A stretch of 39,524 bases of DNA, taken from NCBI GenBank assembly GCA_964453755.1, contig CAYVPL010000001.1, forward strand, positions 1-39,524, read 5' to 3'. How positions within the stretch are numbered: position 1 is the first letter of the stretch; the number at the start of each line of letters is the position of its first letter. The position numbers were made by a program, and so were the translations under genes. The notes beneath the pieces are model-generated. The model had not been told where the DNA came from. It did no database searches and saw only the letters and a program-made list of their open reading frames with translations. Shown here one piece after another: positions 2,131 through 18,261 of this stretch. Origin of the DNA: an uncultured Planctomycetales bacterium (GTDB lineage: Bacteria > Planctomycetota > UBA1135).

Positions 2131-3300
2131 TCAGACCTGCAGCGCGTCCGGCGCCAGACGCACCAGCAGGTCGTCGAGGAAGAGCAGGCCGCGCGGCGTC
2201 GCGCGCGTGCGGCGGTCCGCGCCGGCGCCGACCGTCTCCAACATTCCTTCTTCATGCAGCGCGCGCCAGGCGGGCGCGCAGTCCGCCGTCTGAGGGCTGA
2301 GGCCGGTGCGCGCGAGCAGGCGCGCGTGTGACACCCCCTCTTCGCGCAGGCGCAGGCCCATCATCAGATTGTCGAAGAGGACGGTCGGCGCGGCGGTGCG
2401 CTCGCGCTCGGCTGCCGGGTCGGAGCCCGCGGCGAGCGCCGCCTCGTAGGCGTCGGGCCGCTCGAGGTTTTTGCGCCGCTCGCCGTGGCGCCACGATGCG
2501 GCGCCCGCGCCGATGCCGACGTAGTCGAGCGAGCGCCAGTAGGCGAGATTGTGGAGCGAAGCTTCGCCGGCGCGCGCGAAGGCGCTGACTTCGTAGGCGC
2601 CGAAGCCGCGCTCGGCGGTGAGCGCCGCGGTGGCTTCGAAGAGTTCGCGGCAGCGCTGGCTCTCCTCTCCCGTCCAACGGCCGGCGTCGCGCAGGCGCGT
2701 GAGCGCGGTGCCGGGCTCGTAGGAGAGTTCGTAGCAGGAGACGTGCTCCGGCTGCCAGGACAGAACTTCGCTCAGGTCCTGGCGCCAGACTGCGGGGTCT
2801 TGGCCCGGGAAGGCGAAAATGAGATCGCAGTTGACGCGGCGGAAGCCGGCGGCGCGGGCGTTGTCGAAGGCCCGGCGCGCGCCGGCCGCGTCGTGCACGC
2901 GGTCGTAGGCCTGCAGCACGTCCGCCTGCAGCGACTGCACGCCGATCGAAACGCGCGTCACGCCGCCGGCGGCGCAGGCCGCGGCGCGCGCGGGATCGAA
3001 GGATTCCGGATTGGCCTCGAGCGTGACTTCGCGCGCGCTGGCGCGGAAGCCGGTGATCGCGTCGAGCTCCCCGAGCAGTCGCGTCAGCTCCGGCGCCGGC
3101 AGAAATGAGGGCGTGCCGCCGCCGAAGAACACCGTCTGCGGACGCAGGCCGGCGGCGCGCAGCCGCGCCTCGCTCAGCAGCGCGTCCACGTGGCGCGCAA
3201 GATTCTGTCCGGTCCAGGCGTAGGAATTGAAGTCGCAGTAGCGGCACTTCTTCACGCAGAAGGGCAAGTGCACGTACAGCGAGACGCCGTCGTCGGACAA
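2131..3300 (-). CDS. hemW: Radical-SAM heme chaperone HemW / oxygen-independent coproporphyrinogen oxidase-like protein
   Basis: Contains LYVHLPFCVKKCRYCDFNS (CxxxCxxC), GGGTPS and a HemN_C-like tail. I prefer the TTG start at 3300 (MSDDGVSLYVHLPFC), which matches the usual HemW N-terminus. The ATG at 3444 or the track start at 3588 would overlap the sigma gene by 92-236 nt. Confidence 0.8.
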   Translation of the reverse strand: MSDDGVSLYVHLPFCVKKCRYCDFNSYAWTGQNLARHVDALLSEARLRAAGLRPQTVFFGGGTPSFLPAPELTRLLGELDAITGFRASAREVTLEANPESFDPARAAACAAGGVTRVSIGVQSLQADVLQAYDRVHDAAGARRAFDNARAAGFRRVNCDLIFAFPGQDPAVWRQDLSEVLSWQPEHVSCYELSYEPGTALTRLRDAGRWTGEESQRCRELFEATAALTAERGFGAYEVSAFARAGEASLHNLAYWRSLDYVGIGAGAASWRHGERRKNLERPDAYEAALAAGSDPAAERERTAAPTVLFDNLMMGLRLREEGVSHARLLARTGLSPQTADCAPAWRALHEEGMLETVGAGADRRTRATPRGLLFLDDLLVRLAPDALQV

Positions 3301-3352
3301 CGCGCCGGGCGGAACCGCCGCCGCGGCGAGGGCATCGCGGATGCCCGTGAGA

Positions 3353-4186
3353 TCAGGCGGGGCGGCGTCGGGCTTCGTCGGCCTTGCCGCGTCCGGCGCC
3401 GGGCAGGATGCGCTCGGCGGGTTGTCCTTCGACGACGTAGGCATGGAGCTTGCGAAGCGCGTGAGTCTCGAGTTGACGCACCCGCTCGCGCGAGATTCCG
3501 AGCGCCTCGGAGATGTTCTCGAGGGTCGAAGCCTCCGCGTCGTCGAGGCCGTAGCGCATGCGCAGCACGGAGGCCTCGAGCGGGTCAATGAGGTCCAGGA
3601 TATCGCGCAGCGTCGCCAGCGCGTCTTCCTGCATCACGATGTCGTCCGGCGTACGGCTGTCGCGGTTGGTGTCCTCGTCGTGCCGCTCCAAGCCTTGCAG
3701 CAGTTCGGGCGCCATCACTCCTCCCCCATCCTGCGCAATGAGCGTCTGCTCCACCATCTTCCGATTGGATTTGGAAAGCTTGAGGCGCTGCGCGATTTCA
3801 TCCTGCGAGGGCCGGCGGCCGAATTCGTGCAGCAACAGCTCGGAAGTGCGGTGCCACTTCGTGATGATTTCGACCATGTACGAAGGCACGCGCACCGTCT
3901 TGACATGATTGATCAAGGCGCGGCGGATCGTCTGCTGAATCCACCAGGTGGCGTAGGTGGAGAAGCGGAACCCGGCCTCCGGGTCGAATTTCTCCGTCCC
4001 CTTGAGCAGGCCGAGGTTGCCCTCCGCGATCAGGTCCGGCAGCGCCAAGCCGCGGCCGCGGAAGCGCTTGGCGATGGACACCACCAAACGCAGGTTGGCG
4101 CGGATCATGCGCTCGCGCGCCGCCTCGTCGCCCGCGCGGATCAGTCTTCCCAGCGCCACCTCGTCGGCAGCGGTGAGCAGAGGCAC
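3353..4186 (-). CDS. Sigma-70 family RNA polymerase sigma factor (regions 1.2-4, no region 1.1)
   Basis: Contains [19 protein letters not shown] (region 2) and a region 4 helix-turn-helix ([27 protein letters not shown]). The GTG at 4186 is the only canonical start, but the conserved region 1.2 continues upstream, so the true start may be at 4234 or 4264 (see findings). Confidence 0.9.
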
Positions 4187-4348
4187 CTCGTCGATCTCAC
4201 GCAGGTACGTCTCGAGGCAGCGGTCCGAAGCGATGGGCGTTCTCCGAGAGTGGTGGCAACACAGCCGCGATGGCGACCGTTCAGGGGGTGTGACTCTTTC
4301 GGCTGCACTTGGGTTCCGCTTGAATGCCCAAAATGCAACTTCCTAGTC

Positions 4349-4377
4349 TTGCCGGGTGCGCAAAAGTGCCCTAAGTA
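4349..4377 (+). promoter_or_regulatory. Candidate sigma-70-type promoter for parB (TTGCCG-17 nt-TAAGTA)
   Basis: A hexamer pair with 17-nt spacing lies in the only sizeable lower-GC intergenic region (4187-4508), about 130 nt upstream of the parB ATG. This rests on pattern match only. Confidence 0.2.
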
Positions 4378-4508
4378 CTTACGCCGCAAAGGGTTAGAGA
4401 ATGGACCGCTGCTGAACAATGCCCCAGACTTGTGGCTTGCGGGCCCCCCGCCGATCCTCCCTCGCTGGATTCCGCGTAATTTCGGCGCTAGTGTGGAGTC
4501 ATCTCAAC

Positions 4509-5411
4509 ATGACGCAGCCCCGCAAGCTTGGTCGAGGACTCGGATCACTTCTGGCCGCAAGACACGGACAGGAGGCCGAGGTGGTGGACTCCGATGGCCG
4601 GATCTGGGCCCCGTTGGAGGACTTGAGTCCGAGCAGCGAACAGCCTCGACGCGACCTGGACCGCCAGATTGAGAGCCTGGCGGAGTCGCTTCGGCGGCAC
4701 GGCATGATGCAGCCCATCATCGTGACCAAGCTTCCAGGAGGTCGCTGGGAGATCCTGGCCGGCGAGCGCCGTTGGAGGGCGGCGAAACTGGCTGGGATGA
4801 AGAATGTGCCCATCCTCGAGCGTGCTGCTCCTGCTGACCGGGGTGAGCGCCTGGAGTTGGCCCTCATTGAGAACATCCAGCGCGAGGATCTGAATCCCAT
4901 TGAGCGCGCCCAAGCCTGCCAGCGGTTGATTGCGGAGCATGGCTACACCCAGGAGCACGTGGCGGAGCGCTTGGGCTATCAGCGGTCAACCGTGGCGAAC
5001 CTGGTGCGACTTCTGGACCTGCCCTCGGAGCTGCAGGACGATGTTTCACGTGAAACACTGACCGCAGGACACGCGCGTGCCCTCCTGCAACTTCAGGGAA
5101 ACCCGCTTCAGGCTGAGGCTCGCAAGCGGATGATCGCCGAGAACCTCTCCGTGCGCCAGGCTGAGGAGCTCTGCAAGGCTTGGGCGGCCCATGGGGCTGA
5201 GCCCAAGCACCGCGCACGGCCGCGGAAGCCGTCATGGGTGGCCGATCTTCAGGAGAAGACCTCCCGTGCCTTAGGGGTGCGGACCGAGATCGCCCTGCTG
5301 GCGCGCGGTGGGGGCAAACTCATCCTCCACTTCCAAGACCTGGACCAACTCGACCGCCTGACGCGGGAACTGGGCGGCCCCTCCGAGGCCGAAGAATTGC
5401 TCGAAGGCTAG
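4509..5411 (+). CDS. parB: Chromosome partitioning protein ParB/Spo0J
   Basis: 300 aa from the ATG at 4509. Contains KLGRGLGSLL, the GERRWRAAKLAG arginine patch and a helix-turn-helix (TQEHVAERLGYQRSTVANLVRLL). Confidence 0.92.
   Translation: MTQPRKLGRGLGSLLAARHGQEAEVVDSDGRIWAPLEDLSPSSEQPRRDLDRQIESLAESLRRHGMMQPIIVTKLPGGRWEILAGERRWRAAKLAGMKNVPILERAAPADRGERLELALIENIQREDLNPIERAQACQRLIAEHGYTQEHVAERLGYQRSTVANLVRLLDLPSELQDDVSRETLTAGHARALLQLQGNPLQAEARKRMIAENLSVRQAEELCKAWAAHGAEPKHRARPRKPSWVADLQEKTSRALGVRTEIALLARGGGKLILHFQDLDQLDRLTRELGGPSEAEELLEG
5042..5057. other. parS: parS centromere-like site, perfect palindrome TGTTTCACGTGAAACA
   Basis: Exact match to the canonical 16-bp parS consensus TGTTNCACGTGAAACA. 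It lies inside parB, encoding DDVSRETL. Confidence 0.85.
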
Positions 5412-5424
5412 TTCTGAAAAGGCT

Positions 5425-6354
5425 TTAGAGCGCTCGGGCGCTGACCACCTTCACCGTCGCCGAGGGCCCCGCGGCTTCCAAGGCGGCCTTCAGCGGTGCT
5501 AAGCCCTCCAGCACTTTTGCCAGAACCGTGGCCTGTCCGTCCAACTGGAACAGGTCCATCAGCAGCAGTTGAACCGCGCCCGGGTCCTGAGCGCCGAACT
5601 GCCCAGGGAGCTGCAGAATGCCGATCGTGCCTTCCTCATGGAAGAGGCCGTACGGCCGCTCCACCAGGATGGTCGGCGGCGCCTCAGCACCCTCTGCCAC
5701 TTCGATCTTCGTGAGGTTCATGGTCAGGCCGGTCGTACCCAGAAGGCGCGCGGACTGATCATTCATGCGTCCAGCTTCGACCCAACTCAGGAAGGCCGCG
5801 GTTCCGACCGGGCACTGCTCCTCGTAGAGGCCAGCGACAATCGTGTAAGTCGTTTCTGCGCCTAGACTTACGACGATTTCGACTTTCCTCCCGGTGGGCT
5901 CCGGGCTGACGAATTCCTTGGGCAGAGCGCCCGCTCCGGAGTCCTCCAATTGACGGAGGAGGAAGGCGGCCATGCCTTCGCGTCCGCCCGGAGTGGCGAC
6001 TCGGATCGAGTCATCCTGAGCCAGGCTTTCCAGTTCCGGCTTCAGCAGGGCCAGGGCCTCAGCGTCGCCGTCCTGCGCGGCCTGCCGCGTGGCCTCCATC
6101 ACCACCCAGGGGAAAATCCGGGGGTCCGACTTCGCCTCGCCCAGCCGCGTGCTGAGGGCGGGACTCTCCGGACCAGCCATGGCCAGCGCCCGGTACGCGT
6201 CCCAGGACTCCTCTCGCGCTCCTGCAGCCCAGTCGGCGCTGAGGTTCCGGTACGTCACGATGCCGCCGACGACGGCCACGCCCGCCAAGAGAAACCAGAC
6301 GTTTGCGCGCAGCCACGCGTAAAGGGGTGTGTCCTGAAAGGTGATCTCCGACAT
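5425..6354 (-). CDS. Membrane-anchored protein with a divergent cyclophilin-type PPIase-like C-terminal domain
   Basis: 309 aa with an N-terminal TM helix (VWFLLAGVAVVGGIV). The C-terminal ~150 aa align by eye to cyclophilins: YEEQCPVGTAAFLSWVEAG versus FDDKAPETVKNFLDYCREG, and EGTIGIL...VQLLL...LDGQATVLAKVLEGL versus RGTLAMA...AQFFI...LDG.H.VFG.V..G. Confidence 0.6.
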   Translation of the reverse strand: MSEITFQDTPLYAWLRANVWFLLAGVAVVGGIVTYRNLSADWAAGAREESWDAYRALAMAGPESPALSTRLGEAKSDPRIFPWVVMEATRQAAQDGDAEALALLKPELESLAQDDSIRVATPGGREGMAAFLLRQLEDSGAGALPKEFVSPEPTGRKVEIVVSLGAETTYTIVAGLYEEQCPVGTAAFLSWVEAGRMNDQSARLLGTTGLTMNLTKIEVAEGAEAPPTILVERPYGLFHEEGTIGILQLPGQFGAQDPGAVQLLLMDLFQLDGQATVLAKVLEGLAPLKAALEAAGPSATVKVVSARAL

Positions 6355-6450
6355 GGAAGTGCGGCCAGTCTAGCGATGCGCCGCCGACCCCGGCGTGAGA
6401 CCTCCCAAGCCCCCTGCCGTTCCTAGACTACGGTTCTCCCGCAATCATTC

Positions 6451-8433
6451 ATGACCGTCCTTCCCAAGATTCTCACCTTCTGCCTGCCGCTCGCGTTCGT
6501 GGCATGTCAGGCCACGCCGGCCATGCTCGCCAAGAAGGAGCTCGCGCCGGTTCCCGCCAGCCTCGCCGACCAGCTCCCCAGCGACACGGTGCTCTTCTTC
6601 GCGATGCCCGACGTTCCCGCCATGCGCGCGAACATGGGCAAATCCACGATGCTGAAGATGTACCGCGAGCCGGAGATGCAGGAGTTCCTCTCCGGCGGGC
6701 TCGAGCTGCTGGACGAGGCCTGGGTCGAGTTGCGCGCTCAGGCGGACATGCAGGGCATCCCGCCTTCGCTGATGAGCTGGGACAATCTGCGCTCCTTCGA
6801 GATGGGCATGGCGCTGAGAGCCGCGCCGGGGCAGGCCAATCCCTTCGACGCTCCTCCGCACATGCAGGCGCTCGCGCGCTTGAACCTCGCGCCCGGCGTG
6901 GGCGTCGTCGTCTTCGATCTGATGGTCAAGATGGGGGCGAATCACAACCTGACCGTCGAGCAAGGCCAGGGCCGCCGCACGGTGACGGTGGTGAACGAGA
7001 TGGAGGAGGGCAGCCCGCTCATCCTGAAAGTGCACGGCTACGACGACGCGGTGATGCTCGAGTTCACGTGGGGCGCGCCCGGCGCCGGACGTCTCTCTGA
7101 CAATCCCGCCTACCGGCGCGCGTGGCATCGCAATGCCATCGCCGGCACCGCCGCCTTCGGCTTCCTGCAAGTGCAGGACGTCGCCACCCTCATTCACGAC
7201 GGTCTCAGCGCCGAGGAGCCCGCCGTCGCCGAAATGATGGGCGAGTTCTTCACCAGCGTGATGCAGCCGATCGAAGCCGTGGCTTTCGCCTCGGGCTGGA
7301 ACGACGCTGGCAGCTTCACCAACGCCTCGCTCGACTTGAAGGAAAACGCCGGCGAGCTGTGGAAGAGCGCTCCCTTCGACCGCGGCCTCGCCGCGCACAT
7401 TCCGGCCGCCGCAACCAGTTTCTCGATCGCCAGCACCAACAGCGGGCCATGGATGCAAATGATGATGCGCACGCTCGACCGCGTCGGCGCCTACGTTCCG
7501 CCGGAATCGCCGATGAGCCTCAACCAGGTGCTCGCGATGAGCGTGCCTGAAGTGCACGGCTGGATTTACGGCGCGCACCGGCCCGAGTTGGACCGCGCGC
7601 TCGCCAGCTTCGGCACGGCCAGCTTCAGTTACACGGTGCCGACATCCGGCCTCTCCGCCGACAGTTACACCTTCGTGCAGCTCGCGGATCCCGAGGGCAT
7701 GAGCGCCGTGCTCGAGCAACTGATGCCGCGCCTGCGTGAAATCCTCAAGACCTCGGAGGCGCCGCTGCAACTCGAGATGCGCCGCACCAAGCGCAAGACC
7801 ACCCAGCCCGACGGCAGCGTGGTCGAATCCGCCGGGCCGGCCTACTACTGGATCGAGTTCGAGTTCCCGCCCGAAGTCGCGCAGGTCGCGGCCATCGTCG
7901 GCCAGGTCTTCAAGCCGAGCTTCGGCATCGCGCCGGAGGGCTGGCTGGTGTTCTCCATGAACAAGGATTCGGTCAGCCGGATCCTGCGCGACGGCATGGT
8001 GAAGCCCGAGCACAACATTCTCGAGAACCAGGAGGCGGCGAAGTTCCTGACCGCCGCGCACAAGGACGCGCACGCAGTCAGCTGGAGCGACCCGCGCCCG
8101 GCGGCCTCCGCCGCGCTCGGCCTCGTCAGCGGGTTCATCCCGATGCTGGGCGGAATGCTCGGCGAGAACGCCGACCAGATCCCCTTTGATCTGACAAAGT
8201 TCCCGGCGGCCGAGGTCTTCGTGCGCAACATGCGCACCGACGAAGCGGTCTCCTACGCCTGGCTCGGCGACTTCCGCAGTTCCCTCACCGGCAACTTCGG
8301 CTTCGCCGATCTCTTCAGCGTCGTCGGCGCACTCGTGTCCATCGCGCCGCCGTTCATCGGTCTCGCGCAGTCCATGGTCGAAGGCATGCCTGCGGGCGAG
8401 CTGCCGCCGGACCCCGGCATGATCGAGTTCTAG
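6451..8433 (+). CDS. Large secreted/lipoprotein of unknown function (660 aa)
   Basis: Has a signal peptide with a lipobox-like LAFVAC. The composition is protein-like (K, F, N, M, W, Y present), unlike the antisense 666-aa Arg/Gly/His-rich shadow ORF. Confidence 0.75.
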   Translation: MTVLPKILTFCLPLAFVACQATPAMLAKKELAPVPASLADQLPSDTVLFFAMPDVPAMRANMGKSTMLKMYREPEMQEFLSGGLELLDEAWVELRAQADMQGIPPSLMSWDNLRSFEMGMALRAAPGQANPFDAPPHMQALARLNLAPGVGVVVFDLMVKMGANHNLTVEQGQGRRTVTVVNEMEEGSPLILKVHGYDDAVMLEFTWGAPGAGRLSDNPAYRRAWHRNAIAGTAAFGFLQVQDVATLIHDGLSAEEPAVAEMMGEFFTSVMQPIEAVAFASGWNDAGSFTNASLDLKENAGELWKSAPFDRGLAAHIPAAATSFSIASTNSGPWMQMMMRTLDRVGAYVPPESPMSLNQVLAMSVPEVHGWIYGAHRPELDRALASFGTASFSYTVPTSGLSADSYTFVQLADPEGMSAVLEQLMPRLREILKTSEAPLQLEMRRTKRKTTQPDGSVVESAGPAYYWIEFEFPPEVAQVAAIVGQVFKPSFGIAPEGWLVFSMNKDSVSRILRDGMVKPEHNILENQEAAKFLTAAHKDAHAVSWSDPRPAASAALGLVSGFIPMLGGMLGENADQIPFDLTKFPAAEVFVRNMRTDEAVSYAWLGDFRSSLTGNFGFADLFSVVGALVSIAPPFIGLAQSMVEGMPAGELPPDPGMIEF

Positions 8434-9395
8434 TGCTGATCGCAATCCTCGCGGCGCTTCCGGCTCTCGGGTCGGCGGCGCCGCTCGCTTTCGCCGGCGC
8501 CCAGAATCCGCCCGGCGGCACAGCCGGCCCGCTGACCTGGACCGCCGAAGAATCTCTGCTGCCGATCGCGCGGCCGATTTCCCTGCTCGCGGAGTCCGAG
8601 CTGCCCAAGATCGAGGCCTGGCTCGGCGTGCCGCCTTCAGGCCCCGGCCAGTTGACCTGGGTCGCCGACCGGGCCGGCTTCGAGCGCGCGATGGGGGCAG
8701 AGGCGCCGGCTTGGTTCGCCGCCGTCACCATTCCGGCGCAGCGCCGCATCGTGATGCTGGCGGACCGCAGCAAGGGCACGGGCCAGCTCAGCGAAACCTT
8801 CCGCCATGAACTGGTGCATTGGGCCATGCTCGGCATCGGCGAGTCGGCTTGGCAGACGCTGCCGGCCTGGTTCCACGAAGGACTGGCGGAAACCTGGGCC
8901 CGCACCGATCCGCTCTCACAATTCGCCTCGCCGCTCGCCTGGCGCGCCTTTCGCGGCGGCCTCAGTCCGCTCAGTCACTATCGCGAGGGTTTCGGCCGCG
9001 AGCCCGCGGCGGCCGCCGAGGGCTACGGGCTGGCCTACGCCTTCGTCAAGCGCCTGGTGCGCATCCACGGCGACGGCATCGTCGCGCAACTGATGGCCCG
9101 GTTGCGCGCGGGGGAGAGCCTGGACCAGGCGCTGATCTCCGTCACCGGCCTGGGCCTCGTCAGCCACGAGGAAGCGCTGCGCGCCGAACTCGGCTCGCTG
9201 GGCGCGCTGCTCGGCGAGATTTATCCGCAACTCTTCCTCTTCATGGCGCTCTTCGCTCTGGCCACGACGCCGTTCGTCGTGCGCGCCCGCCGCCGCAAGC
9301 GCCGCCTCTTCGAGGAGAAGTGGGAGCGCGAAGAGCAAGCCCGGCTCGCGGAGGAGCAGGGCGGCGAGGATGATCGGTGGATTCAACCGCGGTGA
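8433..9395 (+). CDS. Putative zinc metallopeptidase (peptidase_MA_2-like), C-terminally membrane-anchored
   Basis: The GTG start overlaps the upstream stop (TAGTG). Has a signal peptide, HExxH (FRHELVHWA) followed by WFHEGLAETWA, then a TM helix (LFLFMALFALATTPFVV) and an Arg/Glu-rich tail. Confidence 0.7.
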   Translation: MLIAILAALPALGSAAPLAFAGAQNPPGGTAGPLTWTAEESLLPIARPISLLAESELPKIEAWLGVPPSGPGQLTWVADRAGFERAMGAEAPAWFAAVTIPAQRRIVMLADRSKGTGQLSETFRHELVHWAMLGIGESAWQTLPAWFHEGLAETWARTDPLSQFASPLAWRAFRGGLSPLSHYREGFGREPAAAAEGYGLAYAFVKRLVRIHGDGIVAQLMARLRAGESLDQALISVTGLGLVSHEEALRAELGSLGALLGEIYPQLFLFMALFALATTPFVVRARRRKRRLFEEKWEREEQARLAEEQGGEDDRWIQPR

Positions 9396-10150
9396 ATCCC
9401 GTGCCCGACCCCGTCCCTGCCGCGCCCGCGAAGCGGCGCAGCGCCTGGCGCCGCTTCAAGCGCAGCGCCGGCTCCGCGGCGGGACGCGCTTTGGGGCCAG
9501 TCATTGTCAAATTGCTCGCGCGCACCTGGCGCGTGCGCTTCGTGAACGCCGCGGCGCGCGACGAGCGCGACGCGCAGGGCAAACTGGCCGTTTACTCCTT
9601 CTGGCATCAGAACATTCTCGCCGCCGTCGGCACGCATCCCGGATTTCCGGTGCGCGTGCTGATCAGCCGCCACCGCGACGGCGAGACCATCGCGCAACTC
9701 GCCGAACGCCTGGGCGGCAAGACTGTGCGCGGCTCCACGCACGGCGGCGGCGCCGCGGCGCTGCGCCAAATGGTCAAACTCGCCGACGCGAGCGCGGACG
9801 GGCTCGGCTTCACGCCCGACGGCCCGCGCGGCCCGGCGCGCAGCATCGCGCCCGGCGTGATCGCGCTGGCCGCGGCCACGGGCCGCCCGCTCGTCGCGTC
9901 GGGCTTCGCCTGCTCCCGCTTCTGGCAGGCGCGCTCGTGGGATCGCATGCTGCTGCCCAAACCCTTCGCCCGGCTGGTGGTGGCCTTCGAGCGCCTGCCG
10001 GCGCCGCCGGGCGAAGCTGCGCGCCAAGGCGAGGCGCATGATCGCGCGCGCGCGCAACTCGCGCAGGCGATGAACGACGCTGCGGCGCGCGCGCGCGCCG
10101 AACTCGAGAGTTGGAGCGGCCGCCCCGCGCCGGAGATCGCGCCCTCGTGA
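9377..10150 (+). CDS. DUF374 / lysophospholipid acyltransferase-family protein
   Basis: Contains FWHQNIL...ISRHRDGE...GSTHGGGAAALR...TPDGPRGP, typical of the DUF374 family often linked to Kdo/lipid A genes. A GTG start at 9392 is equally possible. Confidence 0.75.
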   Translation: MDSTAVNPVPDPVPAAPAKRRSAWRRFKRSAGSAAGRALGPVIVKLLARTWRVRFVNAAARDERDAQGKLAVYSFWHQNILAAVGTHPGFPVRVLISRHRDGETIAQLAERLGGKTVRGSTHGGGAAALRQMVKLADASADGLGFTPDGPRGPARSIAPGVIALAAATGRPLVASGFACSRFWQARSWDRMLLPKPFARLVVAFERLPAPPGEAARQGEAHDRARAQLAQAMNDAAARARAELESWSGRPAPEIAPS

Positions 10151-11061
10151 GCGGCAGCCCTTCCGCGACTTTGGTCTTCGCGATGGATCCGCGCGGCGCC
10201 AAGGTGCTGGGCGACGCGCTGACCGCCGCCGGCTTCCGCTTCGGATCTCTTGCCCACGCGCAATGGCAGGCGCGCGGCGAAGGCGTGGTGGCAAGCCTTT
10301 ACAACAGCGGCAAATTGGTGGTGCAAGGCCCCGGCGCCGAGGCCTTCCGCGCGCGCTTCCTGCAGATGGGCATCGCCGTCGCGGGCAAGAGCCATCCGGG
10401 CGATGCCGAGTTGCCGCCCGCGGCCAACTCGCTGGGCTCCGACGAAGCCGGCAAGGGCGACACCTTCGGACCGCTGTGCGTCGTGGCCGTGGCGGTGGAC
10501 GCGGCAGCCGCCGAAGAATTGGCGCGCGCCGGCGTCGCCGACTCGAAGACACTGTCCGATGCGCGCGTGCTGGCGCTGGCCGAGCACTTCGCCGCGCGCC
10601 TGCCGCACGAGGCGCGCGTGCTGCAGCCGGCGGAATACAACGCGGCCTGGGCGGCGGCCGGCCGCAACGTCAACAAGCTGCTCGCGCAGCTGCACGTGGA
10701 CTGCCTGACGCAGCTGCACGAGCGCACCGGCTTCACGATCGCGGTGGTGGACCGCTTCGCCGCCGAATCTCCGGTGCGCGCGGCGCTGGCGAAGCGCGCG
10801 CCGAAGTTGCGCGTCACCGAGGTGCCGCGCGCCGAGCGCCATCTCGCGACCGCCGCCGCATCGGTGCTGGCGCGCGCCGCGTTCGTCGAGGGCGTCGGCA
10901 AGCTCGAGCAATTCGCCGCCACCGATCTGCCGCTGGGCAGCGGTTCGCCGGTCGGTCCCGCGCTGCGGCGCTACGTGGAGATCCACGGCGTCGCCGCGCT
11001 CGGCCAGGTCGCGAAGCTTCACTTCAAGAACGTGCAGCGCTTCATCCAGGATGTCCACTGA
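10147..11061 (+). CDS. rnhC: Ribonuclease HIII
   Basis: The GTG at 10147 overlaps the upstream stop (GTGA). An N-terminal TBP-like domain is followed by GSDEAGKGDTFGPLCVVAV...DSK..., the RNase HII/HIII catalytic motifs. Confidence 0.85.
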   Translation: MSGSPSATLVFAMDPRGAKVLGDALTAAGFRFGSLAHAQWQARGEGVVASLYNSGKLVVQGPGAEAFRARFLQMGIAVAGKSHPGDAELPPAANSLGSDEAGKGDTFGPLCVVAVAVDAAAAEELARAGVADSKTLSDARVLALAEHFAARLPHEARVLQPAEYNAAWAAAGRNVNKLLAQLHVDCLTQLHERTGFTIAVVDRFAAESPVRAALAKRAPKLRVTEVPRAERHLATAAASVLARAAFVEGVGKLEQFAATDLPLGSGSPVGPALRRYVEIHGVAALGQVAKLHFKNVQRFIQDVH

Positions 11062-11590
11062 CCGCACCCACGCCCACGGCCACGCACGGCCGGCCTTCCG
11101 CGCCCTCGGCCTGAAGATCCTCACGGTCTCCGACACGCGCGGGCGCGCCGAGGACCGCTCGGGCGACTTTCTCGAGTCCGGGCTGAGGGCCGCCGGCCAC
11201 CGCGTGCTGGAGCGGCGCATCGTGAAGGACGAGGCGGCCGAGATCCGCGCCGCGGTCCAGGCCTGGGCCGGGGAGCCGGAGGTGTTCGCGATCCTGGTCA
11301 CCGGCGGCACCGGCGTGCTGCCCCGCGACGTGACGCCGGAGGCGGTCGAGCCGCTCTATGACAAATTCCTGCCGGGCTTCGGCGAGCTGTTCCGGGCGCT
11401 GTCGTTCCAGGAGATCGGCGCGGCGGCCATCCAGTCGCGCGCCTCGGCCGGCCTGGTCGGCGGGCGGGTGGTCTTCCTGCTGCCGGGCTCAGTCAACGCC
11501 TGCCGACTGGCGCTGGAGAAGATCATCCTGCCGCAGCTCGACGCCGGTACGCCGCCCTGCTCCTTCGCCAGCCTGCTCTGCGGCGGCTAG
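11051..11590 (+). CDS. moaB: Molybdenum cofactor biosynthesis protein B (MoaB/MogA family)
   Basis: 179 aa with TVSDTR...ILVTGGTG...GR.VFLLPGSVNAC motifs. Confidence 0.85.
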   Translation: MSTDRTHAHGHARPAFRALGLKILTVSDTRGRAEDRSGDFLESGLRAAGHRVLERRIVKDEAAEIRAAVQAWAGEPEVFAILVTGGTGVLPRDVTPEAVEPLYDKFLPGFGELFRALSFQEIGAAAIQSRASAGLVGGRVVFLLPGSVNACRLALEKIILPQLDAGTPPCSFASLLCGG

Positions 11591-11982
11591 TCCGGCTTGG
11601 CCGGAGGATCGATCGGCGGCTCGGCGTTGACGATGGCCGGATCCACCGGCTGTTCGCCGGCCGCCGGCGGGGGAGCCGGCTCGGCCGGCGCCACCTGCGC
11701 CTCGGCCGGCGGCTCCTGACTGGCCGGACCGGCCGCATGATCCATGTCGCGGCGCCAGCGCGGCTCCTCGAGGCGGAAATCGGTCTGGCGGCGGATCTCG
11801 TTCACCGCCTCGTCAATGCCGGCCTCGCGCTTGAACTCGTTGACCGAGCGGCGCAGCTTCACCCACATCTGGCCGAAGTCGCGCATCAGCTTGGGCAGGT
11901 CCCCGCCGAAGAGCAGGATGCCGACGATCGCCACCACGATCAGTTCGCCCGAACTGATGAAGGCCAGCGGCGCGGGCATCAT
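11587..11982 (-). CDS. tatA: Twin-arginine translocase TatA/TatB-family subunit
   Basis: Has an N-terminal TM helix plus amphipathic helix (GELIVVAIVGILLFGGDLPKLMRDFG) and a Pro/Ala-rich tail. It lies 10 nt downstream of lptD on the same strand. Confidence 0.8.
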   Translation of the reverse strand: MMPAPLAFISSGELIVVAIVGILLFGGDLPKLMRDFGQMWVKLRRSVNEFKREAGIDEAVNEIRRQTDFRLEEPRWRRDMDHAAGPASQEPPAEAQVAPAEPAPPPAAGEQPVDPAIVNAEPPIDPPAKPD

Positions 11983-11991
11983 CCCGGCAGT

Positions 11992-14409
11992 TTACTGCCA
12001 GCGCAGGCGGGCCAATTTGCGGCTGCCGTAGGGATCGAAGAAGAAGCGCGGCGTCAGGTTGAAGTAAAGGCCCACGTCGCCGCTGGTCTGGGAGCGGCTG
12101 TAGCCGAATTCAAACAGGAAGTCGTGGCCGTAGTACTGCGCGGCGTAGTTCGTCCGCACGCCGGCGTCGCCGGAGAAGGTCCTGGACTCGCGGAAGCCCA
12201 GCGCCCAGCGCTCGGTGAAGCGCCAGCCGGCGAAGAGGGAGCCGTAGGCGAAGTCCGTCGGTGTGCCCTCGGTCTCGAAGTACTCGAGGCCGTAGCTCAA
12301 TTGCTCGCCGGGCCGCACGTTGAGGCGCGTGAAGATCTCCTGCGTGGTGCTGGCGGACACGTCGTGGCGCAGCCGACTTTCGAGGCTCACGCCTTCGAGC
12401 TGCGAGCCGGGCGCACCCGGAATCCACAGCGCGCGCAACTCGACCGGGCCGAAGCCCTCCTCGGTGATGGCGGTGGTCCAGGGCTGCGGCCCTTCCATCG
12501 GCGTCAGCACCTCGCCGGTGCTCGGGTAGTAGGGCGCCAGCAAGTCCACGTCGAGCCAGGGCTCCGTGCGCCCGGGTCCGTCGAAGAACTGGCGCAGCGA
12601 AAATTCCGCGACCTCGCCTTCTGACAATCGGTCCATCCCGTCGATGTCGGGCGGCACGAAGTCGGACTCGACCAGCTCGCGGCGCGCGCGCAGCCGCACC
12701 TGCGGCACGACGCGGTGCGACCAGCCGTCTTCCCAGCGCTTGTTAATCGCGATGCCGGCCTCGAGGAATGCCTCGGCAGTCATCTGCTCGCCGGTCTCGG
12801 CGCCCGCCGTGTCGTCCTCCCAGACGCCGCCGGTGAAGCGCGCGCCCGGACGCCAGAACATGCCCGCGCCGTGCGCCGGCAGCGCGATCTCGGTCCAGGC
12901 GCGCGCGCGGCTCCGCACCAGGGTGGGCTGATCCAGGAAGTCCACCGAGCCGGGCGGGGCCGTCAACTCGCGGTCCTGCAGGCGGATGCGCGCGACTTCG
13001 GCGCCGTACTCGACGTTCACCGCCACCTCGTCGTCGCCGCCGCCCAGCACCGGCACTCCCAGTTCGCCCACGGTCGTGGAAAATCCTTCCCACTTCGCGC
13101 GCGGCAGGTCTTCCACCGTCTGCGGCGCGGGCCCCGGCGCCTCCGGGAAGCCGCCGAAGGGCGTGGCACCGTAGTCGTCCAGCCGCGGCCGCACGCGCAG
13201 CGAGCCGTAGGAGTCCTCGTCCTGCCGCACCAGCGCAAACTCGCTGAAGACGTCCTCTTCCTCGGCCCAGTCGCGGCCAAAGAATTCCGGATCCACCAGC
13301 GGGTCGCTGGTCACGTCCAGCACGCCGTAGGCCCGCCACACGTCTGACAATTCCCAGACGTTGTCCATCCGCACCCGCCAGCGATTGTCCGTGTCGCGGC
13401 CGACCACCTTGGTCATTTTGGTCTTGTCGCTGGCCTCGTCTTCGAGGAAGAAGAGCTCCCAGTGGCCGCGGTAGCCGTCGCCTTTCAAGTCGGCCTCGGC
13501 AGCGAGCGGCAGGCCGCGCCGCGTGCTGAAGGATGGATAGAAGTTCCACTCGATGTTGGTTCCGCCAAGGCGCTCCTCGCCGCGGAAGCGCAGTTCGATG
13601 AAGCTGCCGTACTTGTCGCTGTTGCCGGCGCGTCCGCCCTGCAAGCCCAGGAAACTCTCGCCGGGCTCGAAGTCCGGCGTCGGCATCGGCAGCACGCGCC
13701 GGCCGAAGATTTCCAGCCAGCCGCGCTCGGGCTGCCACAGCAGGTTGCCGTTCGGCAGGCGCGACACGCGCACTTCGCCCAGGCGCAGGCCGTAGTGCGG
13801 ATCGTCCGCGGCGCAGGTCGTCAGCACGGCGTTGACGGCGCGCAGCGAGCCGTCGGGCAATTCTTCGAGCAGATCGGCGAAGAGCGCGAGCGGCCAGCCG
13901 TTCGGCCCGCCGGCGCCGGGCGCGAAACGGAGCTGCGCGCGCTCGAGGCTCATGCGTCCGGCGGCCGGCTGGTCGCGCAGGACGTCCGCCTGCACTTCCA
14001 GCTCCGGCGTCGTGATGCGCACGGATCCGGTGAGCACGATCTCACGAATCAAAGTCTCGTCCTCGGGCAGGCCGAGGCCGCGCAGGATTTTGCGGCTCCA
14101 CAGTCCGGGCAGCACGGTGCCGGCATCCTGGGGCAGGGGGTCCGGCACCGGCTCATCGGCGCGCGGCAGGCCCTCGGCGATGGCGGCGCGATAGCGCACC
14201 GCGTCGAGGCTGATTTCGGCCCGCTCCGCGCTCAACGTCAGATCCGGCGCGCTCAAGCGCGGACGCTCGAGCAGGTAGATGATCAGGTCGCCTTCCTCGC
14301 GCGGCGTGATCGAGTCGGCCTGAAAATTCTGCTGCTGCTGCTGCGCGGCCGGCTCCTGCGCGGGCTGGATCATCGCCGAAGCGAGCAGCAGGGCCGCGAG
14401 GGCGAGCAT
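11992..14409 (-). CDS. lptD: LPS-assembly outer-membrane protein LptD
   Basis: 805 aa from the ATG at 14409, which shares 1 nt with the upstream TAA. Has a signal peptide MLALAALLLASA. LTTCAADDPHYGL and VTSDPLVDPEFF match the LptD TSC...W and VSDPSYF regions. Ends in a C-terminal beta-barrel (...YFNLTPRFFF). Confidence 0.85.
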   Translation of the reverse strand: MLALAALLLASAMIQPAQEPAAQQQQQNFQADSITPREEGDLIIYLLERPRLSAPDLTLSAERAEISLDAVRYRAAIAEGLPRADEPVPDPLPQDAGTVLPGLWSRKILRGLGLPEDETLIREIVLTGSVRITTPELEVQADVLRDQPAAGRMSLERAQLRFAPGAGGPNGWPLALFADLLEELPDGSLRAVNAVLTTCAADDPHYGLRLGEVRVSRLPNGNLLWQPERGWLEIFGRRVLPMPTPDFEPGESFLGLQGGRAGNSDKYGSFIELRFRGEERLGGTNIEWNFYPSFSTRRGLPLAAEADLKGDGYRGHWELFFLEDEASDKTKMTKVVGRDTDNRWRVRMDNVWELSDVWRAYGVLDVTSDPLVDPEFFGRDWAEEEDVFSEFALVRQDEDSYGSLRVRPRLDDYGATPFGGFPEAPGPAPQTVEDLPRAKWEGFSTTVGELGVPVLGGGDDEVAVNVEYGAEVARIRLQDRELTAPPGSVDFLDQPTLVRSRARAWTEIALPAHGAGMFWRPGARFTGGVWEDDTAGAETGEQMTAEAFLEAGIAINKRWEDGWSHRVVPQVRLRARRELVESDFVPPDIDGMDRLSEGEVAEFSLRQFFDGPGRTEPWLDVDLLAPYYPSTGEVLTPMEGPQPWTTAITEEGFGPVELRALWIPGAPGSQLEGVSLESRLRHDVSASTTQEIFTRLNVRPGEQLSYGLEYFETEGTPTDFAYGSLFAGWRFTERWALGFRESRTFSGDAGVRTNYAAQYYGHDFLFEFGYSRSQTSGDVGLYFNLTPRFFFDPYGSRKLARLRWQ

Positions 14410-16745
14410 TACCGGGGCTCTTCGAGGCGCACGGGGCCGGATTCCAGCAGGTGCGTCTTCATGTTGTAACGCAGCCAGGTGGCCGTCAGGTCGCGGCCGT
14501 CTTCGAGCACCAGGTGCGCCGCGCGCTCCGGCGATCCGGTGAGGCGCATCCATCCGGTGGCCTCGTCCATCTCGATCTCCGCGCCTTCCGCGCTCATGCC
14601 GTCCTGCGCCAGCGAGGCGTTACCCGTCAACTTGAGAAACACGACGCGCCCCGCTTCCGTGCGCCAGTCCGCGCGCTCGCCGGCCGCGCGACCCAGCGGC
14701 GAGTCGAAGCGCGCGCGCCCCTCCGCCCAGCCGCCGATTTCGCCGATCTGCGCATTCTCCGCGGTGAGCACGTGCGTCGAGCCGTCCGTCTCCTCCAGGC
14801 GCGCGACGGCGCCGCCTTCGAGCACCAGATTCTGCGCGGCGTCCACGCCCAGCCGGCGCGCGGTGGCGGCGAAGGTGCGGCCGTCCGCCAGCGTTCCCGT
14901 GGCGCTCGGCGTGCCGAAGCGCCGCTCGAGCCACAGACCTTCCGTCGGCGACCAGCGGGCGGAGTCGGCGCTGGTCTTCAACGCGCCGTCGGCCTCGACG
15001 TCGCCCTCCAGCAGCCAGGCGCCGGTCGCGTGCTGGCGCGTGCCGGAGCGCGCGGTGAGCACGACGTCCGGTCCGGCCAGTCCCAGCGCCGCCGCGGGCA
15101 CCGTGATCTGGGGCGCACCCTCGATGCGCAGCAGTTCGGCGTCGGACTCGGCGCGGCGGAAGTCCGAGAGCGCGGTCATGCCGTCCTCCAACTCCATGCT
15201 GGCGTGCGCCGGAATGCCTTCGAGCCGGAAGCGCTCTTCGTCCAGCTGGCGCAACCGTGCCGCGCGAATGCTGATGCCGGGCGCCTTGTACTCGAGGTCG
15301 CCGTCGGCGTCGGTGCGGCGCGCGCCGTCGGGCTCGAGGCGCGACACGATGCGCACGCCTTCCACCGACCAGGGTTGCGCCTCGCGCATGCCGTGCGCCA
15401 CGAAGCCCTCGTTCATTTCGACCAGCCCGTCGCGCTGCGCGCTGAGCGCCGGCCCGCTCATTTCGCTCAGCAGCGAGTCCCGGGCGAAGAGGCGCACGCT
15501 GCCGCGCGCCTGCAGGCCTCCGTCCTCGGCGGCGGTCAGCTGATCCGCGCGCGCCAGGCCGGCCGCCGAGACGGCCACGATGTCGCCGGTCGCCTGCAGC
15601 GTCTTGCCGTCCCATCGCGCGGAGTCGGCGCTGACGGAACCGTCCGCGTCGAGCGCGAAGCAGCGGCCGTCCAGTTCCAGGATGCCGGTGAGCGGATCGA
15701 GCCGGGCCCGCTCGCGCGCGGTCGCGACCGCGAAGCGGGTGTCCCAGGGCCGCGCCGCAGCCGGGCCGAGGATGACGATCTCTGACAATGCGCCGGCCTC
15801 GTTCCAAGTCAGATCGGCATCCCCGCCTTCGAACGCGATCGCGGCGCCGGACAGGAACACCGGTCCAGCCGCGCGCGCGGCGCGCGGGCGCCAGCCGGTC
15901 GCGCCGGTCGCCTCCAGGCTCATCGCGAAGTCGCGGCTCGTGATGACGGAGGCCGGGCCGCCCGCGGTTCCGGGGAGCGCGGCGCGCACGCCGCGCGCGC
16001 CCGGCTCGAAGCTCAACTCCAGGCCGCCGTCCGCGTTGGTGACGACTTCGCCGGGCGCGTCGCTGCGGCCGCGGAACACGCGGCCCGCGGCGTCGGTCAT
16101 GCTCCACACGACTTCGCCGTTCCAGGGCTTGAAGCGCAGCCGCTTGCCGGCGGCGTCGTAGCGCAGATCGGCGGCGTCGAGCACGAGGTCTTCCGACTCC
16201 ATCCGGAAGTGGCCGGGGCAGGTCACCACCTCGCTGCGCGGATCCAGGCGGGCTTCGCCGTCGGCGGTGGCGCGCAGCGTCCGGCCGGGCGTGAAGTCAG
16301 GCAGCGTCAGCACCGGATTCGTGAGCCGCCACAGGCGCTCGAGGTCGAGGCGGATTTCGCGTTTGTCAGGCGCCAGCGGAATCCAGGCCTGCGGCGCGCG
16401 CACCGTGAAACCGCGGCCTGTGCCGGACTGCGGCGCCACGATCACCGCGTTGACGATGCGCGCGCCCGAGCCTTCCGGGCGCGGATCGTCGCCTTCCATG
16501 CGCCAGCCCGGCACGCGCGTCGCCGCGCCGCTCGCGTCCGGCTCGAGGCGGTCCGTTGTCAAAGTGACGTGGCCGGCGAAGCCGATCTCGACCGGCCCGA
16601 CGCCGGGCAGCACCTGATGGAAGCCGTCAGGAGTGGGCACGACGATCTCGGCGCGCTGCCCGAGATGCGCGGCGAAATCCGTGCCGAGCGCGAGCAGCAC
16701 CGCGCCCGCCACCGCGCCGCCGGTCCAGGCCAGGCCGCGGTTCAT
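14409..16745 (-). CDS. Giant membrane-anchored LptC/LptA (OstA)-like periplasmic protein (778 aa)
   Basis: Has an N-terminal TM anchor (LAWTGGAVAGAVLLALG) and a long beta-rich Gly/Asp/Ala repetitive body. The C-terminus LTGNASLAQDGMSAEGAEIEMD...LTATWLRY resembles the LptA LTGNAYLQQ...GDKITY motif. It sits between kdsC (ATGA overlap) and lptD, where lptC-lptA normally lie. Confidence 0.65.
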   Translation of the reverse strand: MNRGLAWTGGAVAGAVLLALGTDFAAHLGQRAEIVVPTPDGFHQVLPGVGPVEIGFAGHVTLTTDRLEPDASGAATRVPGWRMEGDDPRPEGSGARIVNAVIVAPQSGTGRGFTVRAPQAWIPLAPDKREIRLDLERLWRLTNPVLTLPDFTPGRTLRATADGEARLDPRSEVVTCPGHFRMESEDLVLDAADLRYDAAGKRLRFKPWNGEVVWSMTDAAGRVFRGRSDAPGEVVTNADGGLELSFEPGARGVRAALPGTAGGPASVITSRDFAMSLEATGATGWRPRAARAAGPVFLSGAAIAFEGGDADLTWNEAGALSEIVILGPAAARPWDTRFAVATARERARLDPLTGILELDGRCFALDADGSVSADSARWDGKTLQATGDIVAVSAAGLARADQLTAAEDGGLQARGSVRLFARDSLLSEMSGPALSAQRDGLVEMNEGFVAHGMREAQPWSVEGVRIVSRLEPDGARRTDADGDLEYKAPGISIRAARLRQLDEERFRLEGIPAHASMELEDGMTALSDFRRAESDAELLRIEGAPQITVPAAALGLAGPDVVLTARSGTRQHATGAWLLEGDVEADGALKTSADSARWSPTEGLWLERRFGTPSATGTLADGRTFAATARRLGVDAAQNLVLEGGAVARLEETDGSTHVLTAENAQIGEIGGWAEGRARFDSPLGRAAGERADWRTEAGRVVFLKLTGNASLAQDGMSAEGAEIEMDEATGWMRLTGSPERAAHLVLEDGRDLTATWLRYNMKTHLLESGPVRLEEPR

Positions 16746-17278
16746 GTGGCAAGCGCGGCGGCGCGCGCGGCCAGCAGGAGATCGCAGACTTGGCGCAGCG
16801 CGCCGGCGCCGCCGGGCGCGGCGGTCACGTAGTCGGCGCGCGCGAGAATCTCCGGCATCGCGCCGGGCGGCGCGATGCGCAGGCCGGCGCAGTCGAAGAG
16901 CGGCAGATCGGGCAGGTCGTCGCCGAAAGCCGCGACCTGCTCGCGCGCCAAGCCGTGCGCGCGCAACAGCGGCCCGGTGACGGCTGATTTGTCAGAAATG
17001 CCGAGATGCACGATCGTCAAGCCAAGCCGGGACATCCGATGGCGCACCGCCGGCGTGTCGCGCCCGCTGACGACGGCCACTTCCAGGCCGCTTTTCAGCA
17101 GCTGCACCATGCCGTAGCCGTCGTGAATGTGAAAGACCACGCTTTCCTCGCCGCCGGGGCCGAGCGTGATTTTGCCGTCGGTCCAGCAGCCGTCCACGTC
17201 GGTCAGCAGCAGCCGCACTCGCGCGGCGCGCGCGAGAAGCTCCCGGGGAAACACGGCCGCGCCGGCCGCGCCGGTCAC
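16742..17278 (-). CDS. kdsC: KDO-8-phosphate phosphatase (HAD-IIIA)
   Basis: Contains LLLTDVDGCWTDG, SGR and FGDDLPDLP motifs. The GTG start overlaps the kdsD stop (GTGA). Confidence 0.88.
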   Translation of the reverse strand: MTGAAGAAVFPRELLARAARVRLLLTDVDGCWTDGKITLGPGGEESVVFHIHDGYGMVQLLKSGLEVAVVSGRDTPAVRHRMSRLGLTIVHLGISDKSAVTGPLLRAHGLAREQVAAFGDDLPDLPLFDCAGLRIAPPGAMPEILARADYVTAAPGGAGALRQVCDLLLAARAAALAT

Positions 17279-18261
17279 AGCCGGACCTCCAGCAGATCCT
17301 GCACGTCCACCAGACCGACGACGCGGCGCGTGCCGTCCGCCACCACCGGCAATTGGTCGATGTGCGTGTCGCGCACGATGCGCAGCACGTCGCCCACCAG
17401 CATGCCGCCTTCGATGCTGCGCGGCGCGCGCGCCATGTGCAGGTCCACCGGCTCGTCGAGCGGCAGCACGCCGGAGCTGGCGAGCCGGCGCAGGTCGCCG
17501 TCGGTGAAGATCCCGCGCAGCTCGCCTTGGTCATCGATGACAATCGCGGCGCCCGGACGCCCGGGCGTGCCGGTCATGACCTGCAGCGCCGCGCGCAGCG
17601 TCGAGCCGGCGCGCAAGAGCGGCACCATCTCGCCGGTGCGCATCATTTCGCCGACGCGCATCAGCTGCTTGCCGAGCGCCCCGGCCGGATGGAAGCGCGC
17701 GAATTCCTCGCGCGTGAATTCGCGGCCCTCGAGCACCGCCATCGCCAGCGCGTCGCCGAGCCCCAGCATCATGGTGGTGCTGACGGTGGGTGAGAGGCCG
17801 AGCGGGCAGGCTTCGGGCGTGTCGCCCATCTCGATCACCACGTCGGCGTGATGGCCGAGCGGCGAGTCCGCGGTGCCGCAGATGGCGACCAGCCGCGCGC
17901 CGATCGCGCGCACCGCCGGCACCAGTTGCAGCATCTCGCGCGTGGCGCCGCTCTTCGAGAGTGCCAGCACCAGGTCTTCCGGCCGCACGCGCCCCAGATC
18001 GCCGTGCACCGCTTCGGCGGGATGCAGAAAGTGGCTGGGCGTGCCGGTGCTGGCGAAGGTGGCGGAGATCTTCTGCCCGATCAAGCCCGCCTTGCCCATG
18101 CCGCTGACGACGACGGCGCCCTTGCAGTCGAGTACCAGGCGGCAGGCGCGCTGGAAGGAATCTCCCAGGCGGCCGGTGAGGGCCTGCAGGGCCTCCGCCT
18201 CCAGGCGCAGCACCTCGAGGCCGCGGGCCAGGGCGCGATCTGGATCCAGGATCTTGGACAT
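17275..18261 (-). CDS. kdsD: Arabinose-5-phosphate isomerase (SIS + tandem CBS)
   Basis: 328 aa with VVVSGMGKAGLIGQKISATFASTGTPSHFLHPAEAVHGDLG (SIS) and a C-terminal CBS pair. Confidence 0.9.
   Translation of the reverse strand: MSKILDPDRALARGLEVLRLEAEALQALTGRLGDSFQRACRLVLDCKGAVVVSGMGKAGLIGQKISATFASTGTPSHFLHPAEAVHGDLGRVRPEDLVLALSKSGATREMLQLVPAVRAIGARLVAICGTADSPLGHHADVVIEMGDTPEACPLGLSPTVSTTMMLGLGDALAMAVLEGREFTREEFARFHPAGALGKQLMRVGEMMRTGEMVPLLRAGSTLRAALQVMTGTPGRPGAAIVIDDQGELRGIFTDGDLRRLASSGVLPLDEPVDLHMARAPRSIEGGMLVGDVLRIVRDTHIDQLPVVADGTRRVVGLVDVQDLLEVRL

Follow-up and report, generated by a model that had tools for sequence, protein, structure and literature searches.

On a 39,524-nucleotide stretch of DNA from an uncultured Planctomycetales bacterium (GTDB lineage Bacteria; Planctomycetota; UBA1135; assembly GCA_964453755.1, contig CAYVPL010000001.1), which we refer to as the window, a minus-strand gene string runs from kdsD and kdsC through a gene for a 778-amino-acid (aa) protein, here called X, to an lptD-like gene and a TatA/TatB-family gene. 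We propose that X is likely to be this organism's LptC and LptA in one polypeptide, a covalent LptC-(LptA)n slide for lipopolysaccharide (LPS) that would be anchored at LptB2FGC and docked on LptD. The argument draws on the predicted fold of X, profile alignments, gene order and open reading frames (ORFs) in related genomes in which an X-like protein is fused to an LptD-like protein (Table 1).

Fold, modules and gene status of protein X

X was modelled at full length with AlphaFold2 from an 11-sequence alignment and compared with the PDB by Foldseek. The model (mean pLDDT 82.8) is all beta, with one N-terminal helix (aa 6–27) and about 65 strands. E. coli LptA (2r1a_C) was matched with probability 1.0 (TMt 0.73, rmsd 2.8 Å, 141 columns), as were P. 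aeruginosa LptH and the LptC structures 3my2 and 6mit_C, and the top matches by E-value were full-length LptD chains. A separate model of aa 40–345 (306 aa; pLDDT 80.7) was made to see whether one end alone has the Lpt fold. Its best match was E. coli LptC (4b54_B, probability 1.0, TMt 0.68), followed by LptA (2r19_A, rmsd 2.6 Å), LptH and LptC within LptB2FGC, and its non-Lpt matches all had probabilities of 0.2 or less. The structures 2r19 and 4uu4 were also among the Foldseek matches. At a Foldseek probability of at least 0.9, both models matched Lpt proteins only (LptC, LptA, LptH and LptD), and the predicted structures place in X the beta-jellyroll, with 16 antiparallel strands, by which LptA is recognized. 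A first-pass annotation made from the sequence alone had described X as an LptC/LptA-like protein, a description that both models uphold. An AsmA/TamB-like fold, considered as a candidate for X, was rejected on these Lpt-only high-probability matches.

The Lpt fold is seen near both ends of X and also in its central part. A homologue search from a small planctomycete LptA gave four proteins only; an OstA-unit profile was built instead from the genome matches to PF03968, using 19 such units of other Planctomycetota, and aligned to the X-family profile by hhalign. This profile aligned with X at aa 654–768 (96.5%, E 7e-10), 332–454 (89%) and 420–549 (79%), and more weakly at 288–381 and 557–675, in agreement with the earlier suggestion that X could hold several OstA-type units. 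A small canonical LptA of another planctomycete family matches positions 414–513 of the X profile. The last unit of X runs up to the stop codon, which shares one nucleotide with the lptD-like start codon. At the other end, two X-family members from genomes of the same family (774 and 796 aa; E about 1e-139 to the X profile) have Pfam LptC matches, at aa 150–196 in G315 and 95–200 in G318, the PF06835 scores being 20.8 bits (21.5 with neighbours) for G315 and 16.4 bits for G318 against a cut-off of 21. The X profile also aligned co-linearly with an LptC-OstA fusion protein of another family (G097), from the transmembrane helix through the LptC domain to the first OstA unit, with 52–59% probability. 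Taken together, the models and alignments suggest that X begins with an anchor and an LptC module (aa ~90–220) and continues with a series of OstA units, the last of them C-terminal.

We estimate that X contains about five jellyroll units, with a range of 4–6. Counting strands, about 65 in X at 16 per LptA give about 4 units; counting length, about 680 structured residues at 125–140 aligned columns per LptA give about 5. For comparison, the G097 protein, 849 aa long from its transmembrane helix, has LptC, four Pfam OstA domains and a 108-aa gap that may conceal a fifth OstA unit. Comparison of the X profile with itself gave off-diagonals at ~93–115, 163–184, 226–272 and 380–400 aa with probabilities of 85–98%, which were not used for the unit count because the offsets lie near multiples of ~23 aa, the length of one beta-hairpin. 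A model of the Borrelia pathway assigns about 18.5 nm to LptC, LptA and the N-terminal domain of LptD together and about 6 nm to each extra, larger LptA (10.1101/2022.12.21.521298); by analogy, the length of X on its own may be very roughly 15–20 nm.

Long ORFs come cheaply at high G+C (64–74% in the window and 73% in the genome). Eleven close homologues (45–85% identity) align with X from end to end and are all 775–788 aa long, and a deep search of 1.8 billion representatives recovered 43 clusters of relatives, nearly all of 750–830 aa. X is therefore a real gene: full-length homologues of such constant size led us to reject a chance frame of this G+C-rich genome.

The N-terminal helix of X, in which W7, G9, A19 and D23-F24-A25 are invariant across the family, is Ala/Gly-rich and aligns co-linearly with the transmembrane helix of the G097 protein. 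It is probably a signal-anchor resembling the LptC transmembrane helix, with a cleaved signal peptide as the alternative. The N-terminal anchor named in the first-pass annotation was thus found as a helix at aa 5–27, but its hydrophobicity is modest (Kyte-Doolittle 1.5) and leaves room for cleavage. Its LptA-like C-terminal motif fared similarly: LTGNASL is present at aa 706–712, but the following G..I.Y element reads GAEIEM, with M in place of Y. Within the beta body, a nearly invariant PAAALGLxG (aa 549–558; window 15072–15101, minus strand) contains the rod's single short helix (aa 551–554) and equals the N-terminal anchor in hydrophobicity (Kyte-Doolittle 1.5); it could serve as a hinge or a partner contact.

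Several observations weigh against reading X as a fused LptC and LptA. The support from its own sequence is thin: the sole Pfam match is to LptD_N/OstA (PF03968) at aa 679–731, scoring 20.5 bits against a cut-off of 20.4 and covering half of the model; the NCBIfam LptA model TIGR03002 scores 11.9 bits against a cut-off of 71.7; and the LptC model PF06835 does not match. The X-family profile found nothing among PDB sequences at E<=10, its alignments with explicit LptC-OstA fusions reach only the 52–59% given above, and that with the shorter LptC-OstA3 fusion of another genome (G169) was not significant. To these are added the moderate hydrophobicity of the N-terminal helix, which could be a cleaved signal peptide, and the state of the genome, a metagenome-assembled genome (MAG) that is 80% complete.

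Table 1. Coordinates of the gene string, of the modules of X and of fused ORFs in related genomes
Feature	Sequence	Coordinates	Strand	Evidence or remark
kdsD, arabinose-5-phosphate isomerase (SIS + 2 CBS), first in string	Window	17275..18261	-	TIGR00393 274 bits (cut-off 204); PF01380, PF00571
kdsC, Kdo-8-phosphate phosphatase	Window	16742..17278	-	TIGR01670 136 bits (cut-off 107)
X, candidate single-chain LptC-LptA-type protein, 778 aa	Window	14409..16745	-	AlphaFold2 model, Foldseek, homologue lengths
N-terminal hydrophobic helix of X, aa 5–27	Window	16665..16733	-	Model helix 6–27; Kyte-Doolittle 1.5
LptC-like first module of X, aa ~90–220	Window	16086..16478	-	Foldseek 4b54_B; Pfam LptC in G315 and G318; hhalign with G097 LptC domain
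Middle LptA/OstA-like units of X, aa 332–549	Window	15099..15752	-	hhalign with OstA-unit profile
C-terminal LptA/OstA unit of X, aa 654–768	Window	14442..14786	-	PF03968; hhalign 96.5%, E 7e-10
Putative divergent LptD-like outer-membrane protein, 805 aa	Window	11992..14409	-	Start ATG at 14409; family-profile evidence
TatA/TatB-family gene	Window	11587..11982	-	TIGR01410 E 1e-7, PF02416 16 bits; both under cut-off
Fused X-like + LptD-like ORF, 1768 aa	L076 (G096)	5628-10934		Same order
Fused X-like + LptD-like ORF, 1862 aa	L074 (G208)	2661-8249		Same order
Fused X-like + LptD-like ORF, 1984 aa	L075 (G201)	5810-11764		Another family

The LptD-like neighbour, fused forms and the gene string

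The LptD-like protein encoded directly downstream of X has its own signal peptide (MLALAALLLASAMIQPAQEP). It had no Pfam match of its own, and its identity therefore needed evidence at the level of profiles. Its family comprises 35 homologues, several of them labelled Planctomycetota; in the PDB the family profile matched only LptD chains (E 1.4e-3), PF04453 was matched by 5 of 18 homologues (best 8.3e-7), and aa 48–154 at the N-terminus resemble the OstA unit (hhalign 57%). On this profile evidence the gene appears to be a very divergent lptD. Detection of planctomycete LptD has previously taken a two-step BLAST (Speth et al. 2012, PMC3422733).

In three genomes, two of the same order and one of another family, an X-like and an LptD-like protein form one ORF. 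In the shortest of these (G096), which is preceded by kdsD and kdsC (the latter a HAD phosphatase by Pfam), the C-terminal ~770 aa are homologous to the window's LptD-like protein, residues 999–1735 aligning with its family over 676 columns (99.3%, E 1.6e-20). The N-terminal part has a transmembrane helix and a weak LptC match; the X profile aligned with this half co-linearly, at a level that was not significant (E 0.016). At the junction, an OstA-like C-terminal motif is followed at once by the beginning of the LptD-like part; neither a stop codon nor an internal signal peptide separates the two. The fused ORFs of the other two genomes are each preceded by a kdsC-sized ORF, which in G201 lacks a Pfam match. 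In the window the chain is split exactly at the LptA-LptD joint (TAATG), the barrel has its own signal peptide, and the split is kept within the family. By the classical logic of gene fusion, the C-terminus of X would therefore be a physical neighbour of the LptD-like N-terminus, and from the fused ORFs we infer that X probably docks directly on the LptD-like protein.

The order kdsD-kdsC-X-LptD-like-TatA is the same in homologue contigs down to 46% identity. In more distant members of the phylum, kdsC is followed by genes for X-like proteins of 901–1064 aa and then by an LptD-like gene, and in other families the slot after kdsD-kdsC holds proteins in which Pfam recognizes LptC with three OstA domains (655 aa, E 1e-23; G169) or with four (869 aa, E 2e-36; G097). 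A pattern-based search for related loci found two loci only. In a sample of 301 planctomycete genomes, most PF03968 matches fell in frames of 630–1215 aa, often with 3–5 matches spaced about 140 aa apart, and small LptA-like ORFs of about 200 aa were a minority. These small forms include the ~195-aa proteins of one family, f49 (PF03968 E 2e-7; L031 6719–7312 and L032 6333–6920, both minus strand), whose genes adjoin a type II/IV secretion ATPase gene and not kds genes. The long proteins in the kdsC slot across the phylum and in the 301-genome sample suggest that a single-chain bridge is a widespread planctomycete trait, of which X would be the shortest and most divergent form. The first-pass annotation had called for a phylogenetic survey of long fused forms and for conservation of X beside lptD; the former turned up long forms in most PF03968 frames of the sample, and the latter is seen in the retained gene order as well as in the fusions.

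The position and overlaps of the genes, as first described for the window, were borne out by the sequence, with the 778-aa ORF in the lptC-lptA position and overlaps of 4, 4 and 1 nucleotides. Read from the sequence, the kdsD/kdsC junction (CTGTGACC) is a four-nucleotide overlap, GTGA, and the kdsC/X junction (ACATGAAC) another, ATGA; at the X/lptD-like junction (CGGTAATGCTC), TAATG, a single A is common to TAA and ATG. The tatA/B-like gene starts 9 nucleotides past the stop of the LptD-like gene, and a promoter and terminator scan found no terminator-like site on the minus strand within the string. The subfamily identities of kdsD and kdsC lie above the NCBIfam cut-offs, and Pfam agrees for both. 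The TatA/TatB-family gene (11587–11982, minus strand) is found at this position in all of the homologous contigs that were inspected (L004–L009); a Tat component linked with an LPS-export operon is unusual.

Other Lpt genes of the genome and alternative explanations

The MAG measures 2.83 Mb in 388 contigs and carries lpxC, lptB (331 bits, cut-off 240), lptF and lptG. Both lptB and lptF/lptG (contig C346) are found on contigs other than that of X, as expected from the earlier remark that they are not adjacent to it. No lptC/lptA-like gene adjoins lptB, which lies in the region C176:1484–3696 (minus strand), directly downstream of a lepB-like signal peptidase I ORF and near lepA. A sub-threshold match to the LptE model PF04390 (C369:386–745, plus strand; L077; 17.4 bits, cut-off 23) covers model positions 5–116 of 118 and lies in a 225-aa open frame that may encode a divergent LptE.

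The genome is without any other LptA or LptC candidate. Besides X, no PF03968 match was found in it, no genome ORF matched PF06835, and a phylum-specific OstA hidden Markov model run over all six-frame ORFs of the genome found only X and the N-terminus of the LptD-like protein. Fifteen further genomes sampled from the order gave no PF03968 match at E<=0.01; because 13 of these are at least 90% complete, the lack of separate LptA and LptC does not come from incompleteness. The LptC matches in 61 genomes of the order all lie in open frames of 689–1772 aa. Separate canonical lptC and lptA genes, which would have spoken against the first-pass annotation, were thus detected neither in the genome nor in its order.

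Three other explanations were weighed. It is unlikely, although this explanation survives best, that X has the Lpt fold and serves something other than an LPS bridge, either by moving another cargo (surface lipoproteins or another glycolipid), as has been suggested for the Lpt homologues of Borrelia, or as an envelope tether or spacer. Borrelia, which has no LPS, retains LptB2FGCAD homologues (preprint 10.1101/2022.12.21.521298), the LptE match is sub-threshold and the LptD-like protein is very divergent; however, X is translationally coupled to the Kdo (3-deoxy-D-manno-oct-2-ulosonic acid) genes kdsD and kdsC, lpxC, lptB and lptFG are all in the genome, and neither the genome nor the order has a second candidate for an LPS bridge. 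Somewhat less probable still is that X is an over-long LptC-type anchor working with a free soluble LptA that falls in the missing 20% of the fragmented MAG (388 contigs) or is too divergent to be recognized; so divergent are the Lpt proteins of this lineage that Pfam picks up neither LptD nor LptC here. The 15 sampled genomes of the order without PF03968, 13 of them at least 90% complete, and the silence of the phylum-specific model argue against such a protein, no element resembles LptA more than the C-terminal unit of X, and a free LptA has no room because in relatives this unit is covalently joined to LptD. Finally, X might transport phospholipid with a beta-taco fold of the AsmA/TamB/YhdP kind, or be a beta-rich repeat protein of some other sort that matches OstA by chance, but this is very improbable: Foldseek does list ApoB100, LPD-3, OspA and Rhs/teneurin with low TM-score or low probability, and the Pfam match is exactly at the cut-off, but no AsmA, TamB or YhdP structure is among the matches listed for either model and no such Pfam match was found, every small-domain match of probability 1.0 is LptA, LptH or LptC (TMt 0.5–0.73), and independent profile and gene-order evidence agree on Lpt.

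Proposed mechanism and significance

In the mechanism that we propose for X as a combined LptC and LptA, the N-terminal hydrophobic helix would keep the protein in the inner membrane, beside the LptB2FG encoded elsewhere, and the first beta-jellyroll (aa ~90–220) would act as the LptC module. About four more OstA/LptA-type jellyrolls, arranged head-to-tail, would form a continuous rod with a lipid-binding groove, the last of which (aa ~654–768) would dock, edge to edge, with the jellyroll that begins the LptD-like barrel protein, the product of the translationally coupled next gene. Pushed along this slide of fixed length, LPS made with Kdo from the kdsD-kdsC route would reach the outer membrane. 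We infer that the cargo is LPS, that X contacts LptFG and LptD, and that it is anchored in the membrane rather than cleaved as a signal peptide.

In E. coli, the counterpart of the N-terminal module is LptC (YrbK, 191 aa; PF06835, TIGR04409; PDB 3MY2, 4B54 and 6MIT chain C), and that of the OstA units is LptA (YhbN, 185 aa; PF03968, TIGR03002; PDB 2R19 and 2R1A). Like E. coli lptC-lptA, X occupies the slot directly after kdsD-kdsC and has a probable N-terminal membrane helix followed by beta-jellyroll, and its presumed role is likewise the periplasmic leg of the LptB2FGC-A-DE bridge. E. coli uses two proteins of ~190 aa each, with LptA in unsettled copy number; X, by contrast, is a single chain of 778 aa, so the stoichiometry and length of its bridge would be fixed genetically. 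Its sequence lies beyond curated models save for one borderline match, and the next gene is lptD-like and not lptB. It also differs from LptA, a small soluble single-domain protein of ~160–185 aa, in having a probable N-terminal anchor and several units. The 655-aa and 869-aa LptC-OstA fusions share with X the slot and the order of parts (transmembrane helix, LptC module, tandem OstA), whereas they are recognized outright by Pfam (E 1e-23 to 1e-36), and X belongs to a short, strongly diverged family from a single lineage. The gene after the G169 fusion encodes a HEAT-repeat/GDPD protein and is not lptD, and the first large ORF downstream of the G097 fusion, of 339 aa, has no Pfam match. AsmA-like proteins, YhdP, TamB and LetB embody the same concept of long envelope-spanning protein(s) with a lipid groove or tunnel, but have a beta-taco or MCE-ring fold, phospholipid cargo and no Lpt-type ATP-binding-cassette motor.

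An LptC-OstA architecture is read outright by Pfam in some planctomycete families and is in that sense already known, and literature searches brought up no account of LptC/LptA proteins in fused or tandem form from Planctomycetes. One survey called the planctomycete Lpt system "largely reduced" (PMC8871954), a verdict that we attribute to parts that are present but have been fused and have diverged beyond the reach of standard models. The special value of X is as the natural split counterpart of fused inner-to-outer-membrane chains, and split and fused pairs locate the LptA-LptD joint. For the E. coli Lpt system, it is unsettled how many LptA copies make up a bridge and whether the bridge is stable or transiently assembled. 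A covalent chain whose unit number is fixed would offer a natural experiment on LptA copy number and on bridge stability, all the more so where close relatives join that chain to the LptD barrel.

We tentatively extend this proposal, with somewhat less than even confidence, to an order-wide hard-wired LPS conduit that occurs in two natural states: a one-chain state (G096, G208 and G201), with an anchor, about six jellyrolls and the LptD barrel, and the two-chain state of the window. The suggestion in the first-pass annotation that such a design could suit a wide periplasm is a plausible speculation for Planctomycetota. If the hard-wired conduit is true, there would be no free, exchangeable LptA, the bridge would be permanent rather than transient, and the number of units would set the spacing of the two membranes, in the manner of a molecular ruler.

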